Below are positions 1 to 7,423 of a stretch of 7,690 nt of DNA, piece by piece (the stretch's first letter is position 1; the number at the start of each line of letters is the position of its first letter). Location of the stretch: the NCBI GenBank assembly GCA_038858525.1, contig JAWCFL010000052.1, positions 3,342 to 11,031 on the forward strand, read 5' to 3'. Under the pieces are notes generated by a model. The model was given only the letters and a program-made list of their open reading frames with translations, was not told where the DNA came from and ran no database searches. Source of the DNA: Candidatus Jordarchaeales archaeon (lineage in GTDB: Archaea; Asgardarchaeota; Jordiarchaeia; Jordiarchaeales; Freyrarchaeaceae). Both the position numbers and the translations under genes were made by a program.

Positions 1-1
1 G

Positions 2-397
2 GAGATAGACATTAAAGGTTTACAGAGCCAGTTTGGGTATCCAGGCGGGAGAGTCATAAGGCTTAACGTTATGAGCGACGACATGGAGCGGGTGGTTGTC
101 CAAGCAGACTTCAAAATTCAGGACGGCAAACTTTTAGTTGTTGAAAACCCAAGCAGAGTTGACACGGTAATAGAGATTTCAACCAAAGCCTTCGCTTGGG
201 CGGTTTTAGGCGACAGGGTTCTCGCGGACGGAAGCATATACGACCTTGAAACAGCATGGTATCTCGGCGAGGCAAGAGTTTTCGGAACAGGAGACAGTAT
301 AAGGGCTGTACACTTCTTTAAGAATGTATGGACGCAGCTGAGGAATAACCAAAAGGCTATTGAAAAGCTGCGTCCACTCCTTGAGAGGTTGGCTTAA
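2..397 (+). CDS. 5'-truncated SCP2 (sterol carrier protein 2)-like lipid-binding domain protein
   Basis: The frame of ORF 71..397 is open back to base 2 (EIDIKGLQSQFGYPGGRVIRLNV-MSDD...), so the true start lies outside the window. The order VIRLNV...FKIQDGKLLVVE...VDTVIEISTKAFAWAVLG...ETAWYLGEARVFGTGD follows the SCP2 pattern (IQFDI...LxxxxGxxxV...ADxTxxxSxxxLxxLxxG...AFxxGKLKIxGD). Recognised by eye only. Confidence 0.6.
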   Translation, partial: EIDIKGLQSQFGYPGGRVIRLNVMSDDMERVVVQADFKIQDGKLLVVENPSRVDTVIEISTKAFAWAVLGDRVLADGSIYDLETAWYLGEARVFGTGDSIRAVHFFKNVWTQLRNNQKAIEKLRPLLERLA

Positions 398-678
398 TGG
401 CTGGAATTTTAGAGAAGCTTGCCACTGGACCAATAAGGGAAGAGATGAAGCGTAGGGTTGACGAGATTATAAGGGCTGGGGCTGAATGGAGCAAAACAGC
501 AAAGGAGCTTGAAGCAACGTTAAACCGGCTTATAGAAGCCATCCAGAAGGGAAACCCTATAGATTTGAAGCCTGTTAACGCGGGGCTGTTAAAGCTTGCA
601 AAGCAGACAAGTAGGCTTTCAAAGGCCTTCGACGACCACAGGAAGACATTAACCGAAGTGCTAGCAAAGCTCGGCTAA
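397..678 (+). CDS. 93-aa alpha-helical/coiled-coil hypothetical protein
   Basis: Translationally coupled to the upstream gene (TAATG overlap at 395-399). Amphipathic helical composition (KTAKELEATLNRLIEAIQ; LLKLAKQTSRLSKAF). Confidence 0.8.
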   Translation: MAGILEKLATGPIREEMKRRVDEIIRAGAEWSKTAKELEATLNRLIEAIQKGNPIDLKPVNAGLLKLAKQTSRLSKAFDDHRKTLTEVLAKLG

Positions 679-1664
679 ACCTTTGGGAAAGGCGCACTCC
701 ATATCCAACGGTTTACTCCGAAAAAGTAGACTACGCCTATGATCTCCAGAACTATAACAGTTAACGGGTCAAGCATAAGCCATGGAACCAAGTAAATGCT
801 CAATATCTCCATAATGGACATTAATAGAAGCTCCCTATTTCGGAGGTAGCGTCTAGGTTTGGTGAGCTGGTGAAGGAAGGAGATGATGAGTGTAGAGAAT
901 ATTACCGTTATTACCAGCCTCACTAAGGTGTAGTTTCGCCACAGTAAAAGGTAGGCAAATAGAAGGTTTAAGCCCTTGACAAGCCACGCGAAAAGCCAAG
1001 CTTTTCCTGGAGAGAAGTAGGCTGCCCCGTTTTTCTCCTTAATTTCGGCTCCTAGCCTAATCAGAAAGTTGCTGCGCTCCCTTAAGCTTAGATCTTTAAG
1101 GTGGCCACTCCATCCAATCTGGAAGAGTATCACACAGAAAGAGTACGCTAAGTACAGTGCCCCAATATAGTCTAGGCTGTTATGTGAAAGAAACCAGCCG
1201 AAAGAGCCTGCAGCTGTGAAACACACGGATATTGGAACAAAGCCTAGGATACACTCTTTACTAAGACCTGAATTGTAGGCTAGACCGAAGACAAACCATA
1301 TAAATATTGAAATTAAAGCGTTAAGCGGATTTGGGGAAAAATGCAGGCAAATCAGTATAGCTGCTAAAGCTAAGGCTGAAAGGCTCCAATGAATGACGTT
1401 GTGGGCTGCCTGTAAAGTTATTCTGCCTGCAACAAGTGGATGATGCCTTTTTGATGGATCCTTAAGGTCGTATCCCATGGCTGTGTCAAGGAGTGAGTTG
1501 TGTCCAAAGCTTATCCAGTGGACGAGTAGGGCGAAGAGGGATACGTATAAGGTTTTGAAGGAGTAAAGGCTGGCAGCTGTCAGGTAAGGTGTCAATATTA
1601 ATAGAATTGTAGCAGGTGCTGTTTGAGCTCGAAAGAGGCGAAGCCAGTCCTTAACTTTCTCCAC
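675..1664 (-). CDS. UbiA-superfamily intramembrane prenyltransferase with MenA/UBIAD1-type first motif
   Basis: 329 aa with multiple hydrophobic TM segments. N-terminal R...T..ATILLILTPY helix. Motif NSLLDTAMGYD (NxxxDxxxGxD, nt 1467-1499) followed by DPSKRHHPLVAGRIT (the RPLxxGxI equivalent). YNSGLSK matches YxxxxK. Second acidic motif is reduced to GHLKDLSLRE. GTG start with GAGGAG SD 5 nt upstream. Confidence 0.85.
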   Translation of the reverse strand: MEKVKDWLRLFRAQTAPATILLILTPYLTAASLYSFKTLYVSLFALLVHWISFGHNSLLDTAMGYDLKDPSKRHHPLVAGRITLQAAHNVIHWSLSALALAAILICLHFSPNPLNALISIFIWFVFGLAYNSGLSKECILGFVPISVCFTAAGSFGWFLSHNSLDYIGALYLAYSFCVILFQIGWSGHLKDLSLRERSNFLIRLGAEIKEKNGAAYFSPGKAWLFAWLVKGLNLLFAYLLLWRNYTLVRLVITVIFSTLIISFLHQLTKPRRYLRNRELLLMSIMEILSIYLVPWLMLDPLTVIVLEIIGVVYFFGVNRWIWSAPFPKV

Positions 1665-1824
1665 TTTTCTCCTCTTCTCTTGGAGGTTTAGCCTTCTTTA
1701 TTTTTATTTCTACATAGTCGCCTTCGTTTATTCCCATTACGATCCGCAAAGGATCCGGGATTTGTATGCGATATTCCTTTTGAACTCGAGCTACGAAGCT
1801 TTTTTCTTCACCTTCCTGGGACAT
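1651..1824 (-). CDS. 57-aa AbrB/SpoVT/MazE-like swapped-hairpin DNA-binding protein (not in ORF track)
   Basis: Hand translation: MSQEGEEKSFVARVQKEYRIQIPDPLRIVMGINEGDYVEIKIKKAKPPREEEKSGES. RIQIP..LR..MGI.EGD.VEI is the AbrB signature. It overlaps the prenyltransferase start by 14 nt, and a TATA element lies 36 nt upstream. Confidence 0.88.
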   Translation of the reverse strand: MSQEGEEKSFVARVQKEYRIQIPDPLRIVMGINEGDYVEIKIKKAKPPREEEKSGES

Positions 1825-2040: not shown

Positions 2041-2907
2041 CTATTTTTTTAGTGTAACAAATATTTGATAGTAGGCTAAAAGGAAGCTTACGATGGCTAA
2101 TATAAATCCTATGTAGAAACCATGTAGGCTTAATATTTCACTGTATCCGCCGTACAGCCAGCATTCATGGCAGAAGTCATGCAACATAACTCCCATTGAG
2201 AGGAAGAATAGTGCCAATGATAATGGGAACATTCTGGTTAGTTTCCACCCTATTCTGGGTCCAAAAAGCTTTATGCTGATCCGCCGTATGAGGCAGTCGC
2301 TTGTAGGCGGATGTTCCTCATCATAGAGGACTAAGATTTCAGCGTCTCTGTGTAGGCAGGCTGCGGCGAAAGCTTTACCTTTATCTAGGAGCTCCTTTAC
2401 AAGTTCCTCTGCAAGCTTTTTAGTCTTCTTCAAGGCTTCACTCCATTCTTCTCCATCTATCCTTAGTTTAATGCCGTAGTTGTTGAATTTCTTAAAGTAC
2501 TCTTTCTCATCTATAGTGAATACGTAGACGTCTGTGTATCCCCAATATGTCGCCTTAAGCTTCCATGCTTCAACACCGAGTTTTTTGGCGCTACTGCAGT
2601 TTTGAGCGTAACATTCCCTGTTTGCCAGTACTTCAACGTTGTTTATGTTTACGCATTTACGGCTGTCGCTTCCCCACCAAGCGTCCTCGGCGCCATGGTT
2701 ATAGTGGCAGACGAGGACTTTTGGATGCTCCTTTAGCGTTTGCTCAACCTTTTCTCTAACAGCATCATCCTTAGCTATGTCTATGACTTTCCATCCCTTA
2801 CTTTGGGCGTAGTCAACAACTTCCTGAGCTTCATCGTAGCATATAGGGGTGACTTCATCATCCTTAATTACTGGTCTTATGACTATGATTTCGTTCAGCC
2901 TATTCAC
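2041..2907 (-). CDS. Putative caspase/gingipain-like (clan CD, caspase-hemoglobinase fold) cysteine protease with two C-terminal TM helices
   Basis: Hydrophobic strand ending in His-Gly (VLVCHYNHG, H71), then a hydrophobic strand ending in Cys (CYAQNCSS, C104), then an ATYWGY strand. This is the H-G...C dyad arrangement of clan CD. C-terminal MFPLSLALFFLSMGVML and FYIGFILAIVSFLLAYY are TM-like. GTG start overlaps the upstream stop. Confidence 0.6.
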   Translation of the reverse strand: MNRLNEIIVIRPVIKDDEVTPICYDEAQEVVDYAQSKGWKVIDIAKDDAVREKVEQTLKEHPKVLVCHYNHGAEDAWWGSDSRKCVNINNVEVLANRECYAQNCSSAKKLGVEAWKLKATYWGYTDVYVFTIDEKEYFKKFNNYGIKLRIDGEEWSEALKKTKKLAEELVKELLDKGKAFAAACLHRDAEILVLYDEEHPPTSDCLIRRISIKLFGPRIGWKLTRMFPLSLALFFLSMGVMLHDFCHECWLYGGYSEILSLHGFYIGFILAIVSFLLAYYQIFVTLKK

Positions 2908-3100
2908 CCTTCCTGGTTAGAATATCAACGCTTAACGATACTACCATTTGCACTATGGTTTTACGGAACTCCTTATCCTTGCTAAGCTTTTTGAGGAAGG
3001 ATTTCTTGTCTAGGATTTCCCTTCCCATCACGAATTTCCAGTTATTTCCTTGACGGTTTATATGGTCTATTATTGCTTTAACTATATCTTTCTCTGACAT
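2900..3100 (-). CDS. 66-aa basic hypothetical protein
   Basis: Overlaps both neighbours in a coupled operon and has protein-like composition. Confidence 0.75.
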   Translation of the reverse strand: MSEKDIVKAIIDHINRQGNNWKFVMGREILDKKSFLKKLSKDKEFRKTIVQMVVSLSVDILTRKGE

Positions 3101-3329
3101 CAGCCTTCCCCATTAAGGATTTAACTGCTTTTTCTGCAGCTTGAACAGCTTCGCGGCGGGCCTCATAATCAATTAGGAAAGCCCAAACTACGATTAGGGC
3201 TATTCCTACAATTAGGCATACAAGCCCAGAATTGAAGTCTGACTGGATGATCTGTGAACCTGTAGTGATAAGCCCAATTGCCACAGCGAAAAGGGTTCCC
3301 TTACCTGCAACCTCAGCTTTAGATACCAT
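3078..3329 (-). CDS. 83-aa two-TM small membrane protein (start revised to ATG at 3329)
   Basis: A strong SD (AGGAGGGGGTGA) directly precedes ATG 3329 (MVSKAEVAGKG...), 1 nt after the upstream TGA. Two hydrophobic segments (TLFAVAIGLITTG; GLVCLIVGIALIVVWAFLI) are followed by a charged helix. Confidence 0.8.
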   Translation of the reverse strand: MVSKAEVAGKGTLFAVAIGLITTGSQIIQSDFNSGLVCLIVGIALIVVWAFLIDYEARREAVQAAEKAVKSLMGKADVRERYS

Positions 3330-3330
3330 T

Positions 3331-3708
3331 TCACCCCCTCCTAAATGGTGTTCCAATTAACATTAACACGGCGTCAGTGATATAAAACTTCCACCATCCA
3401 ATCCTTGCGAATACTGTGTTCTTGTTCCTTATTGGGGAGCCGAAAACGCGCATGTTCATTGTTACAGGATAGTCTGGGTTGCGGTTGACTATGACGTTAT
3501 CCCAGTTGAAAACGCGTTCAGGGATTAGATAGTAAACTTTGCCTCCGTAGGGGGTGTTTCTGCTCATGTATTCGCATGCTTTGTAGATTTCTCCGATGGG
3601 TGCATGAAGCGAGGTGAAAGACATGACGCGGTAGAAAGTTGTTATGATCATCCGTTCTATAAGTGAACCCCACTTGAGATATTCTGGGGGTGGTGTAACT
3701 TCCGCCAT
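3331..3708 (-). CDS. 125-aa hypothetical protein, first gene of the protease operon
   Basis: ATG start with a TATA-like element about 32 nt upstream. Its stop is coupled to the next gene. Rich in aromatic residues, no family recognised. Confidence 0.75.
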   Translation of the reverse strand: MAEVTPPPEYLKWGSLIERMIITTFYRVMSFTSLHAPIGEIYKACEYMSRNTPYGGKVYYLIPERVFNWDNVIVNRNPDYPVTMNMRVFGSPIRNKNTVFARIGWWKFYITDAVLMLIGTPFRRG

Positions 3709-4353: not shown

Positions 4354-4411
4354 TATGAGCTTACCCTGGATAAGCTTGAGGTCTTCCGGAATGGACTAGG
4401 AGTTATTCTGT

Positions 4412-5713
4412 TTATTTAACTTTCTGGAGTTTTTCACTAGAAGATTTTCTATTCCCCAGTTTCTTTTTGAGTTCTGAGCCGTAGGCTGTTAGGCGGTATC
4501 GTGTAGCCCCGTTTGGATCTCTACTTTTCTCCACTAGCCCCATTGACTGGAAGGTTTTGAGGTGTGACGATATTGTTGCTTTGCTGAATTTGAGTTCTGA
4601 TGTGAGCTCACCCCATGTTTTGGGGGTTTCAAGTGATGTAAGCGTTGCCTTCCATTTATTACTCCATAATGGCTTCGGCTGGGATGGAACTATGCTCATA
4701 AAAAGCATTTCCGGATAGGTAGTTGTGGTGCGTGTTGGGATGGCTGTAGCTCGTCTCGTCATTCTGGGAGCCCAAGCCTCTCGATATTCCATCTGCTTCT
4801 CCACCCTAGCGACTGTCAAGTGGATAGTTTTGCCATTTAAGAGTGTATATTCCCCTGCATAGCCTTCAAACTTGATTAATACTGTTTTGGATCCGCCTCT
4901 ATTGAACACCTCTTCCTCTAGGGCTTTCTTTAATTCGTCTAGAAAGTTTCTTATAATGTCCGGTATTTTGTTGATGTCCGGTTGGAATATGCCAGTCTTG
5001 TCCTCCTTTGTTAGGGCATCTGCATAGCTTTTAATTATGGATTCCTCAAAAGCTTTCCACGAGTCTGGATGATCATACATTTCAAGCCCCAATATACCCT
5101 CATTATCAATTACTATAACTCCTACTTGGTTAACGTAGCTTGGAATGTTTTTAAGGAGCTCTTTTAAGTCTTCTCTGAATTTTTGGGTTTGCTCCACAAC
5201 GGATACGAGATCATCACGGGGGATGGGAAGAGTTGGAGTGTGGGACAAAGCTTGGGAGGCGTAGTTTGAAACGGCAGCCCATGTATAGCTCTGGTTTCTG
5301 TAAGCCAGCATGAAAGCGTAGACTTTGACAGGCGTCCTCCCAGATGGGGTGAATTTGGCTCCTGGACGTATGGCTCGTGAGGCATGGACGCAGTGGACTG
5401 GGATTTTCTCCGTTCCTCCAGCTATAACTATTCCGAACTGTGTGGCTCTAGCTTGTGTTGAGCCCTTAAGCATTGTTCCACCTGGGATGAAGACGGGTTT
5501 ATCTGTGTCAGCCTTCACCTTTGCCTCTCTAATGCTTCCAGTATCCTCAATTTTAACCTTGTCTTTAACCTCTTCTAGGACAACGTAGTTTCTTGTCCCC
5601 GGTTTCATAGCTAGAATTGGAATTATCAATGTTAGGGACTTGGAGGTGGCTCTCCAAGGCTCTGCTGGGATGTTATATCTTCCATCTTCAAGTTGACTAA
5701 TTAGGTCCCTCAT
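4412..5713 (-). CDS. ARPP-1 (DUF6569)-like domain protein fused to a C-terminal winged helix-turn-helix
   Basis: VFIPGGTMLKGSTQAR...IPVHCVHASR and NQVGVIVID...GLEMY...W...IIKSYADAL match the family pattern (GEELxGAKQNR...IPVSCVExGRW; QVGxxxxxxG...xxSYAxDA) as I recall it. A Thr-rich linker is followed by KTWGELTSELKFSKATISSHLKTFQSMGLVEK...RYRLTAYG, an ArsR/TrmB-like wHTH. Confidence 0.7.
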   Translation of the reverse strand: MRDLISQLEDGRYNIPAEPWRATSKSLTLIIPILAMKPGTRNYVVLEEVKDKVKIEDTGSIREAKVKADTDKPVFIPGGTMLKGSTQARATQFGIVIAGGTEKIPVHCVHASRAIRPGAKFTPSGRTPVKVYAFMLAYRNQSYTWAAVSNYASQALSHTPTLPIPRDDLVSVVEQTQKFREDLKELLKNIPSYVNQVGVIVIDNEGILGLEMYDHPDSWKAFEESIIKSYADALTKEDKTGIFQPDINKIPDIIRNFLDELKKALEEEVFNRGGSKTVLIKFEGYAGEYTLLNGKTIHLTVARVEKQMEYREAWAPRMTRRATAIPTRTTTTYPEMLFMSIVPSQPKPLWSNKWKATLTSLETPKTWGELTSELKFSKATISSHLKTFQSMGLVEKSRDPNGATRYRLTAYGSELKKKLGNRKSSSEKLQKVK

Positions 5714-5722
5714 ACAATCACA

Positions 5723-5745
5723 AGGTTCAGTTTAATACTGAACCT
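5723..5745. promoter_or_regulatory. Perfect 9-bp inverted repeat AGGTTCAGT-N5-ACTGAACCT, candidate operator
   Basis: Read directly from the sequence. It lies between the minus-strand TATA box TTTAAATA (5747-5754) and the ATG at 5713. Confidence 0.75.
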
Positions 5746-5987
5746 CTATTTAAAGTTTAGGTTTTAACTAAACTATTCCGAAGCTTCTGAGAAGTGTTAA
5801 AAAGCCTAAGGCCACAGGAAATAATGTCCCGGCGAGCTCACTAGTTGACGATAGTAAAGTTGAAGCCCTAATAGAACAAAAATCAGAGAGAAGTTGGCGG
5901 TTCCAATGCGAGGACTCCTTTATAGGCTAAAGGAGAAGTTGGCAGAGTTCAGCACTCTCTCTGAAATAGAAGGGTATAACTCACAAG

Positions 5988-6020: not shown

Positions 6021-6449
6021 TTGATGGGTATTGAGATTGAGCCTCCGGTTAGGCGGGGCTCATTTAAGGGGATATTTGGTATGGCTGAATTTTTAGAGGA
6101 GGGCCCAATCCGCAAATTTATCCGTGAATGGAAGCCTATTCTTCCAAGGGAGAAGCTTCTAAAGGAGTTTTTGGGTGAGCCTAGCCCACCTGTCCTTATT
6201 GGCGGCGAGTGGGTTGACGCTGAAATAGACCGTATGATAGAGGAGAAACAGAAGGAGTGGCGGACTCGCGGATACACTGAGAATCAGATTCGCATGGCTA
6301 CAGACCTTGCAAAGGGATGGATAAGTAAGATGTCTGAGGCTTTTGCACCGGAAGAATTGAAGTCTGCAGTTGCTAAACACATAACCCCAAAGGCTTTAGA
6401 AGTTGCTGATTCCTGGCTGAAAAAGATTGCAGGTTCAAGGGTAATTTAG
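6021..6449 (+). CDS. Helical hypothetical protein (paralog of 3807..4151); start may be 6021, 6024 or 6081
   Basis: MAEFLEEGPIRKFIREWKPILPREKLLKEFLGE (from 6081) aligns with the N-terminus of the 114-aa protein. Its stop overlaps the convergent ATPase stop. Confidence 0.85.
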   Translation: MMGIEIEPPVRRGSFKGIFGMAEFLEEGPIRKFIREWKPILPREKLLKEFLGEPSPPVLIGGEWVDAEIDRMIEEKQKEWRTRGYTENQIRMATDLAKGWISKMSEAFAPEELKSAVAKHITPKALEVADSWLKKIAGSRVI

Positions 6450-7423
6450 GTTTGCTTAGCAAGAAGCTCTATTACCCTGTCCACGTCTTCCCTTGACTTC
6501 TCCTTTAATAGGCGTGCAACTTTAATTGAGTCCCGTACGTCTCTTGTTTTAAGCCTTCTTAAAACTTGGTCTGCTATGTAAACTGCTAATCCCATTGGAA
6601 CCCCCTCCCTTTGCTGCAACACTTTCGCGGATACGTCTATAAACTCGTCGTCGCTGTAGTCCCTGAACCTTAACTTTATGAAGCGACTTAAAAGTTCAGG
6701 TGGAAGCCTATCAATCCTGTTACATGCACCTATAACTTTCGTGTTTAAAGTTTTAGATCTTCTCCGCCCATATTTAACTTCACTAATAAATCCACGTTCC
6801 ATTAGACTTAGGAGAATGCTCAAATCTTCCATTGATTGTATCTTGTCAATCTCGTCCAAGATGAGGAAGCTTGGCTCTTCGTTGTATAGTAATTCGAAGA
6901 GTCCCGCTTTGGAGGTACTTGAACCCAAAATGTATTTGGATCCGGGAAGCCTTGAAAGACATTCAAGAATCAAAGATTTCGCTGAGCTTGGCGAGCCGTA
7001 AAGTAGAAGGTGGCATCTTTCCTTGGATCTTAAGGCCCTCAGTATTATCTCCTTTTTCTCTTCATGTCCTATTACTAAATCCAATATGTCGGAGGGAACC
7101 TCAACTGTCACTTCTTCAGGCTTAACGGTTAGTTTTTCAGCGTCTTTAAGGGCTTTCTCAACAGTTTCAAGGTTTACAAGCCTATATGCTGTTCCACTAT
7201 TGGTTCGCAGTACAACCTTCAAAACCTGCATGACTACAAGCTTGTTTAAGACGCGGGGGTCTCCGCTCACCATGTGCCAGTAGAAGCCGTCATACTCGTT
7301 TTTAGGAGGGTTGTTCTTCTCCCATTCTAGGATACGTTTAAACAAGCCTTTCAACTCGCCGGACTCATCGTTGGACAAGAGTGAAAGCACGGTTTGGTAA
7401 AGCTTTTCCAGACTTACAGCCAT
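6446..7423 (-). CDS. N-terminal wHTH-like domain plus AAA+ ATPase (RuvB/MCM-like, pre-sensor-1 beta-hairpin type)
   Basis: Walker A GSPSSAKS (MCM-like GxPxxAKS), Walker B FLILDEID, ERGFISEVKYG hairpin, sensor 1 IGACN, arginine finger LLSRF. N-terminal DPRVLNKLVVMQVLKVV...TAYRL is wHTH-like. Confidence 0.85.
   Translation of the reverse strand: MAVSLEKLYQTVLSLLSNDESGELKGLFKRILEWEKNNPPKNEYDGFYWHMVSGDPRVLNKLVVMQVLKVVLRTNSGTAYRLVNLETVEKALKDAEKLTVKPEEVTVEVPSDILDLVIGHEEKKEIILRALRSKERCHLLLYGSPSSAKSLILECLSRLPGSKYILGSSTSKAGLFELLYNEEPSFLILDEIDKIQSMEDLSILLSLMERGFISEVKYGRRRSKTLNTKVIGACNRIDRLPPELLSRFIKLRFRDYSDDEFIDVSAKVLQQREGVPMGLAVYIADQVLRRLKTRDVRDSIKVARLLKEKSREDVDRVIELLAKQT

Follow-up and report, generated by a model that had tools for sequence, protein, structure and literature searches.

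The described systems closest to the locus reported here are the SCP2-fold carrier proteins UbiJ and UbiT of Escherichia coli with the partner UbiK, the Mrp/NBP35/ApbC family of P-loop ATPases (PF10609), the DGGGP synthase (DGGGPS) and geranylgeranyl reductase (GGR) of the archaeal ether-lipid pathway, and the mobile elements of Asgard archaea. Metabolic genes on mobile elements and viruses are well known. Asgard genomes encode stand-alone SCP-2 homologues (PMC12139934), which is the closest literature context, and the Asgard elements, as presented in three reports (bioRxiv 10.1101/2021.07.29.453957; PMC11529989; PMC13700489), are rich in ORFans and carry replication genes and some metabolic cargo. 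Here we analyse a stretch of 7,690 nucleotides ("the window", positions 3342-11031 of the 11-kb contig JAWCFL010000052.1, or C52) from the genome of a Candidatus Jordarchaeales archaeon (GCA_038858525.1, or G000); L numbers denote related loci or contigs and X numbers public sequencing runs. The window opens with genes for an SCP2-fold domain fused to an ATPase (ATPase-SCP2), a 93-aa protein (small93) and a divergent UbiA homologue (UbiA1), and we assign a probability of roughly 0.55 to its being part of a conserved and functional cluster of isoprenoid-lipid genes that is borne by one family of mobile elements in archaea.

The locus resembles UbiJ/UbiK in that an SCP2-fold domain is encoded beside a small helical protein and a UbiA-superfamily prenyltransferase, but the SCP2 domain is here the C-terminal part of a ParA/Mrp-type ATPase rather than a carrier protein alone, as in UbiJ and UbiT, and the genes lie on a mobile element of archaea. 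Hydroxylases and methyltransferases of the Ubi pathway were found in none of the annotated loci. A preliminary description of this DNA had named an altered quinone pool as one possibility, an idea that is not supported, quinone-pathway genes being absent.

Open reading frame (ORF) calls returned the three genes at the coordinates and in the adjacency given in that description, the first of them open at its 5' end (Table 1). The start of the 93-aa ORF overlaps the stop codon of the first ORF by 1 nt, its last base, and the 3' ends of the UbiA1 and small93 genes overlap by 4 nt. A 97-N scaffold gap (C52:3245-3341) immediately precedes the window, and window positions 1-130 are 100% identical over 130 bp to C52:3115-3244, the bases before the gap. 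The scaffold ends therefore overlap and were left unmerged, and the ATPase-SCP2 gene appears cut at the window start because this unmerged overlap and the N gap split it in two. Joining the overlapping ends gave a 401-aa protein that can be aligned over its full length with homologues of 403 and 409 aa encoded on other contigs and is identical, residue for residue, to an uninterrupted ORF (L021:11271-12473) on a 29,985-bp metagenome contig that is 99% identical to the source contig; contigs from independent sequencing runs also span the window start. The "SCP2 protein" proposed from the window alone thus keeps its fold, as judged from predicted structure, but is not free-standing, forming the C-terminal third of a 401-aa ATPase.

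Residues 1-240 of the joined protein are a P-loop ATPase of the ParA/Mrp/NBP35 type (PF10609, 164 bits, E = 4e-48), which scored 144 bits with the MrpORP model, below the equivalog cut-off of 450. The Walker A motif is of the deviant form, SGKGGVGKS, and K12, G13, G14, G16, K17, D39, D41 and D114 are invariant among 39 sequences, so that the Walker A, switch and Walker B residues of the Mrp/NBP35/ApbC family are kept and the KGGxGK[ST] P-loop, signature lysine, and switch and Walker B aspartates of the deviant-Walker-A class are all present. The element protein differs from that family in lacking the CxxC motif, the site of which reads ENMSYLKVGKGQ and holds no Cys (relatives keep at most one), and in its C-terminal SCP2 domain, which is foreign to the known family. 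The missing CxxC makes a role of ATPase-SCP2 as an Fe-S carrier unlikely, and an Mrp-type carrier function was set aside on that ground.

An exhaustive HMMER search found 52 relatives of the SCP2 domain, nearly all of them C-terminal in proteins of ~400 aa. Twelve of 42 aligned family domains matched PF02036 (best E 1.3e-6), four matched SCP2_2 and three Alkyl_sulf_C, and sequence searches of the PDB with the domain, as a single sequence and as a profile, returned nothing significant. The AlphaFold2 (AF2) model built from the 42-sequence alignment (predicted local distance difference test, pLDDT, 92.5) is a confident model of the SCP2 fold, an alpha/beta arrangement with a five-stranded sheet against helices. 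Nearly all of the best 50 Foldseek matches in the PDB were SCP2-fold proteins or domains (E 1e-4, TM-score 0.45-0.58), among them SCP2, MFE-2 SCP2L, UbiJ-SCP2, insect and yeast SCP2 and alkylsulfatase C-domains, and VIA-align gave Z 8.2 at a root-mean-square deviation of 3.0-3.3 Å over 99-102 residues. UbiJ-SCP2 (6h6o/6h6p) ranked high in these comparisons (Z 7.7-7.9), yet the similarity was no closer than that to sterol carrier proteins or to the C-domains of alkylsulfatases. We accept the SCP2 fold despite the middling Z because the match list is homogeneous and agrees with the family profile matches; the model thereby confirms what the preliminary description expected of the last 131 residues, through predicted structure and not through the sequence of the domain itself. 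Precomputed Pfam matches of nine full-length homologues include no SCP2, one distant homologue has a faint SCP2 match, and a strong SCP2-ATPase domain occurs in only two other genomes among 201 genomes of the phylum, on small contigs in both cases.

The small93 protein is conserved across the family, with 24 distinct sequences in alignment A4, homologues at 34-53% identity, and M17, G28, W31, A35, L38, L45, L67 and F78 invariant, and looks like a two-helix hairpin. The gap between its gene and the ATPase gene is at most 30 nt in 26 of 33 loci; this family-wide proximity and the overlap of start and stop codons bear out the earlier proposal that the SCP2 gene is coupled to that of a 93-aa helical protein. 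Profile and Pfam searches with small93 and its homologues gave only generic coiled-coil, helical-hairpin or WXG-like matches, with no UbiK among the best 25 of 137 weak families. Homology to UbiK is accordingly not upheld, and the likeness is one of layout only, since the families listed as matches of small93 are generic helical ones. A complex prediction for ATPase-SCP2 and small93 (alignments A3 and A4), run without controls, scored 0.00 and is evidence neither way.

UbiA1 and a second UbiA-superfamily protein of the element, UbiA2, were placed by NCBIfam and PDB profile scores. UbiA1 exceeds the Pfam cut-off for PF01040 (38.3 against 34.2 bits). A PDB sequence search with UbiA1 alone found nothing, and a 33-sequence family profile matched DGGGPS (6m31, 8.5e-5) and AfUbiA, the UbiA homologue of A. 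fulgidus (4tq3, 8e-4), over the first third only. With its AF2 model (pLDDT 94.8), every clear Foldseek match in the PDB was a UbiA-superfamily protein (DGGGPS, AfUbiA, ApUbiA, mycobacterial DPPR synthase and UBIAD1; TM-score 0.53-0.75), so that the family call made from the window is sustained by both Pfam score and predicted fold. The best structural and profile match is the DGGGPS of M. jannaschii (6m31/7bpu), but UbiA1 is a very divergent, true UbiA-fold protein that fits no named subfamily, and its motifs are non-canonical. The first Asp motif reads N56-S-L-L-D60...D66..D69 instead of NDxxDxxxD, with unusual spacing (alignment A2); the three acidic residues of the first metal site are thus there. 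N56, D60 and D66 do not vary within the UbiA1 family, at least 90% of whose members also have D69, and AfUbiA (4tq3) aligns with a similar NxxxD. The site of the second motif reads K190-D-L-S-L-R-E196-R-S-N199, in which K190 and N199 never vary and at least 90% of the family have E196 and R197. As a whole, the family conserves N56-S-L-x-D60...D66..D69, K72-x-H-H-P-L, Y130-N..K136 and K190-[DE]-x4-E196-R-x-N199. This conserved replacement of the second DxxxD argues, from alignment, that UbiA1 is functional, perhaps with altered chemistry. Besides UbiA1, the source genome encodes three UbiA proteins, of which one is DGGGPS-like (C25, 186 bits); by BLASTP none was detectably similar to UbiA1. UbiA1-like genes with 30-32% identity were seen in two complete genomes from another family of the phylum (L019:10242-11255 and L005:1501-2499), in an ordinary chromosomal context that includes superoxide dismutase, ferritin, ArsB and DinB genes and without a Pfam or NCBIfam match of their own; they may represent a cellular branch of the unclassified UbiA1 subfamily, from which the element could have acquired its gene.

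The genes form a cluster in related contigs, where the usual order is GGR (-), a zinc-finger/coiled-coil protein of ~450-535 aa (+), ATPase-SCP2 (+), small93 (+), often p125 (-), UbiA1 (+), an S8 protease (+) and UbiA2 (+). The source element has all of these members; S8 and the canonical UbiA2 lie just past the contig end, as seen on L021. UbiA2 scored 108-110 bits with PF01040, and its closest models are DGGGPS and ChlG (chlorophyll synthase). The adjacent GGR-family gene of C52, a further likeness to the archaeal ether-lipid pathway, carries a YAWSFP-x8-GLG motif, typical of geranylgeranyl reductases, and its homologue matches PF22578 and TIGR02032 (113 bits).

Linkage was counted in the 20 loci where UbiA1 is flanked by 4 kb or more of sequence in each direction. 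ATPase-SCP2 and p125 were each found within 5 kb of UbiA1 in 17 of the 20, GGR and S8 in 15 and UbiA2 in 14, which answers in the affirmative whether SCP2 and UbiA genes co-occur in related contigs. Moreover, the small93 and UbiA1 genes share one orientation in 34 of 37 loci, and in nine they overlap or are separated by at most 3 nt, an operon-like junction. The ATPase block is inverted relative to UbiA1 only in the source lineage; the statement that these genes are convergent and not co-transcribed is thus correct for that lineage and does not extend to the others. In some relatives the S8-UbiA2 pair (overlapping genes in L014) lies on the other side, the cluster being kept together through several rearrangements. 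Genes for more remote homologues of ATPase-SCP2, with 26-28% identity over the SCP2 domain, lie beside GGR (L110) or 3.5 kb from a UbiA gene (L113 and L114), each followed by a 95-101-aa ORF. The theme of an isoprenoid-lipid module put forward in the preliminary description is therefore supported and can be extended to the adjacent GGR, the S8 protease and a second UbiA on the same element.

Part of the same cluster can be read as a DNA-segregation (partition) system composed of the zinc-finger/coiled-coil protein, ATPase-SCP2 and small93, with the SCP2 domain as a membrane tether, a role that a C-terminal helix serves in MinD, and with UbiA, GGR and S8 as unrelated cargo. The ATPase is a deviant Walker A protein on a mobile element and matches the PHROG "ParA-like partition protein" (1.4e-10), but by its PF10609 and MrpORP scores it is of the Mrp/NBP35 type, and partition-type ATPase models cover only its first ~40 residues. 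Its upstream partner, with a C2H2-like zinc finger and a long coiled coil, and its small, helical downstream partner recall the layout of pNOB8 AspA-ParB-ParA, a three-part archaeal plasmid partition system, and the element does encode a ParB_N protein, although the ParB_N genes lie 7-10 kb away. Synteny in one family is no proof of shared function, a point in favour of unrelated cargo; set against it are the nine loci in which small93 abuts or overlaps UbiA1, the 15 of 20 in which GGR is the divergent neighbour, and the GGR or UbiA neighbours kept by distant homologues. Solved SCP2 domains, furthermore, are lipid-binding pockets and not membrane anchors. On balance we regard a partition system as doubtful, if still a serious candidate.

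The contig is a piece of a mobile-element family, as indicated by patchy distribution, mobility and replication genes, and variable cargo. For almost all genes of the 11-kb contig, homologues were found on many metagenome contigs, several of those from relatives being about 44 kb long, and relatives carry a tyrosine integrase, a 752-aa PriS-like primase, ParB_N proteins, IS605 OrfB, an MCM-like AAA+ ATPase and many small ORFans. ORFs flanking related loci almost never resemble the source chromosome, and family annotation of the window proteins and flanking ORFs agrees with the earlier remark that the region has no housekeeping genes. UbiA1 was not found in the three same-genus genomes and one same-family genome searched, and its family occurs in four of 201 sampled phylum genomes, the source included, two of the four being the 30-32% identical chromosomal genes. 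A pattern scan of 185,579 species genomes gave two loci, one of which is the same element, at 99% identity, in a Thermoproteota metagenome-assembled genome. The element is present in hot-spring metagenomes from about six studies (2017-2024; runs X1-X12), and members of its family occur in hot springs and sediments.

These distributions leave very little room for an ordinary chromosome with vertically inherited lipid genes or a plain bin contaminant. The UbiA1-like genes in the plain chromosomal context of two complete genomes, together with one relative on a 242-kb contig, would fit such an origin, but the DNA is that of an element and missing from the sister genomes searched, its relatives bear integrase, primase, ParB and insertion-sequence genes among dense ORFans, the same element has been binned in a different phylum, and the UbiA genes native to the host, one DGGGPS-like and two others, show no detectable similarity to UbiA1.

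The element was initially called virus-like, a label for which comparison with virus databases gave no evidence. A PHROGs scan of 19 proteins found no capsid, packaging or structural hallmarks, the matches being limited to ParA-like, clamp-loader-like and antitoxin-like families and one weak integrase-family match, and IMG/VR contained no relative of UbiA1, searched as single sequence or profile, while the ATPase profile matched the ATPase domain only. No capsid gene connects the element family with the verdandi-, skuld- or wyrdviruses, although a capsid role of its small two-TM (transmembrane) proteins might have escaped recognition. In spindle-shaped viruses of archaea the major capsid proteins are about 80 aa long with two membrane-spanning segments. 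The 92-aa protein of the window, with two hydrophobic helices and homologues detected only in near-identical copies, recalls them in size and shape; no sequence support for this was found.

Protein lipidation offers another account of the cluster, in which proteases (S8 and possibly the 288-aa protein encoded upstream of UbiA1) process an element protein, UbiA or a transpeptidation attaches an isoprenoid anchor to it, and ATPase-SCP2 supplies the lipid. The S8 gene overlaps UbiA2 in L014 and is near UbiA1 in 15 of the 20 well-flanked loci, and the operon that ends with UbiA1 also encodes small membrane proteins and the 288-aa protein. The latter combines a soluble N-terminal domain with C-terminal TM helices, and H71, G72 and C104 are invariant among nine homologues; H71 and C104 fit a caspase-like (clan CD) His-Cys dyad. 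Among named Atlas clusters it comes closest to CHAT (caspase-like), with scores of just 0.83-0.85, and a protease fold found no support, the family profile having no match in the PDB. Lipid-modified capsid proteins have been reported for spindle-shaped archaeal viruses, which speaks for such a process, but protein prenylation is not known for UbiA enzymes, and no substrate protein was identified. We therefore consider protein lipidation improbable.

Several observations weigh against a functional isoprenoid-lipid cluster. A Pfam scan of the source SCP2 domain gave no SCP2 match at E <= 0.1, and the structural matches of that domain are only moderate (TM-score 0.45-0.58, Z about 8). All NCBIfam matches of UbiA1 are far below their cut-offs, the best being the DGGGPS equivalog (36.1 bits against 269). 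The other lipid genes score higher and still below the equivalogs, with 85-88 bits for UbiA2 against the same DGGGPS cut-off and 113 bits for GGR against 158.8 for TIGR02032, compared with 186 bits for the DGGGPS-like gene of the host. No DxxxD is present at the second motif of UbiA1, and with this motif and the low scores its chemistry is uncertain and its catalytic activity a tentative assignment. GGGP synthase and CDP-archaeol synthase (CarS) were not seen in any locus, and a complete ether-lipid pathway is therefore not encoded. In the source element, UbiA1 is convergent with the ATPase operon. The loci all belong to one element family with conserved synteny and are not independent observations, so their co-occurrence may reflect common descent and not shared function. 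Finally, 14 spacers recovered from clustered regularly interspaced short palindromic repeat (CRISPR) arrays of the source genome (C33, C34 and C49) match neither C52 nor related loci, and the host, probably an Asgard archaeon, is consequently assigned by binning only.

From the observed folds, family memberships, gene fusion, mobile-element context and conserved linkage we infer a lipid ligand, an activity for UbiA1, a physical partnership of the proteins and a purpose. In the mechanism we propose, the two membrane prenyltransferases would transfer polyprenyl chains to a lipid backbone or to a protein as acceptor, and these chains would then be saturated by the GGR-family reductase. The soluble ATPase-SCP2 with small93 would hold the hydrophobic polyprenyl substrate or product and pass it on under nucleotide control. 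In this way the element would either alter the membrane of its host or make lipids or lipid-anchored components that serve to maintain or transfer the element itself, and might benefit through membrane remodelling, vesicle or envelope formation, or exclusion. A further proposal, more tentative than that of a functional lipid cluster, is that in an Asgard host an ATP-driven lipid-transfer protein works with the two prenyltransferases and the reductase of the element to produce or relocate a dedicated isoprenoid lipid or lipid anchor.

Other genes of the contig and element lie around the cluster (Table 1). The 57-aa protein encoded just upstream of UbiA1, also in L021, L022, L025, L034 and L101, has weak matches to MazE_antitoxin (1.3e-3), AbrB-like (0.012) and phrog_4681 (7e-4). 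An Atlas search with p125 gave no informative match. The zinc-finger/coiled-coil gene is broken by a second N gap (C52:1329-1426), and its product has a weak PHROG integrase-family match (0.0037). In L015 (12019-16584, -) the S8 protease gene encodes 1,521 aa with two inteins that bear LAGLIDADG homing-endonuclease domains. The 1.55-kb cassette further along the window is replaced by 245 nt with a 100-aa ORF in the 99%-identical L021 and L101 and in contigs of runs X1, X3 and X7, and both forms occur in X1, that is, the region is polymorphic within one sample. A second cassette joint (4614->5776) was seen in runs X2 and X7. The region looks like a cargo-exchange hotspot; it is outside the lipid cluster and marks the element as mosaic. 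The 325-aa AAA+/MCM-like ATPase, probably replication-related, has homologues in L012, L014 and many other loci and is a core gene of the element family.

Table 1 Features of the window and of the adjoining part of contig C52.
Feature	Coordinates	Strand	Basis or remark
GGR-family flavoprotein gene	C52:1-1092	- (usual strand in relatives)	YAWSFP-x8-GLG motif
Zinc-finger/coiled-coil gene	C52:1114-2293	+ (usual strand in relatives)	C2H2-like zinc finger, long coiled coil
ATPase-SCP2, C-terminal SCP2-fold domain, last 131 aa	window 2-397	+	gene start C52:2306, upstream of window
small93, 93-aa helical-hairpin protein	window 397-678	+	translationally coupled to ATPase-SCP2 gene; conserved in element family
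UbiA1, 329-aa divergent UbiA-superfamily membrane protein	window 675-1664	-	PF01040, AF2, Foldseek
AbrB/SpoVT/MazE-like small DNA-binding protein, 57 aa	window 1651-1824	-	14-nt overlap with start of UbiA1
Four overlapping element-core genes upstream of UbiA1, same strand	window 2041-3708	-	ORF calls
288-aa membrane-anchored protein	window 2041-2907	-	ORF call
66-aa protein	window 2900-3100	-	ORF call
Two-TM 92-aa protein	window 3078-3356	-	ORF call
p125	window 3331-3708	-	in most relatives directly beside UbiA1
Variable cargo cassette with ARPP-1 and winged helix-turn-helix (HTH) gene (4412-5713)	window 4362-5914	-	PF20208 1.1e-29 and HTH_5
AAA+/MCM-like ATPase, 325 aa	window 6446-7423	-	PF00004 2e-8, PF00493 2.2e-7, phrog_168 8.7e-11

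Further observations concern integration and the source bin. On the 242-kb contig L035, a tRNA-Leu(GAG) gene (17271-17360) lies ~0.6 kb upstream of a tyrosine-integrase-like gene and 6 kb from the lipid cluster, and it may be an integration site; direct repeats around the tRNA-Leu and integrase genes were not found within 21 kb, nor were tRNA genes found in 15 other loci. A short CRISPR array in the source genome (G000:C34:300-530), with the same repeat as on C33, lies ~0.6 kb from a gene (C34:1086-1991) that is 33-39% identical to the AAA+/MCM-like ATPases of the element family. A related element may have left it behind, or it may be the cellular source of the ATPase gene. GC content in the source assembly ranges from 0.415 to 0.536, with C1, C10, C15, C21, C32, C36, C46 and C52 near 0.42-0.45 compared with 0.47-0.52 for most contigs, and the bin may hold further elements or mixed populations.

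What is new here is the ATPase-SCP2 architecture and the UbiA1 subfamily, metabolic cargo on mobile elements being already known. Full-text literature searches returned no report of an archaeal element with UbiA prenyltransferases, a geranylgeranyl reductase and an SCP2 carrier, and no mention, in the literature searched, of a self-contained system for membrane-lipid synthesis and transfer on an archaeal element or virus. In targeted reading of the three Asgard element papers (bioRxiv 10.1101/2021.07.29.453957, by text search; PMC11529989; PMC13700489), UbiA, prenyltransferase, geranylgeranyl and SCP2 were likewise not encountered.

An active cluster would mean that the membrane lipids of an archaeon can be rewritten or supplemented by a mobile element, and such a lipid system, if real, could build the membrane of a transfer vehicle. 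Activity would bear on how enveloped archaeal viruses and plasmid vesicles obtain lipid mixtures unlike those of the host, and on the evolution of lipid-transfer proteins, for which a nucleotide-controlled SCP2 domain would represent a novel design. With its conserved non-canonical metal-binding motifs, the divergent UbiA1 subfamily is a candidate for new prenyl- or phosphoribosyl-transfer chemistry. An active cluster would also bear on the membrane dynamics of Asgard archaea, a central issue in models of the origin of eukaryotes.

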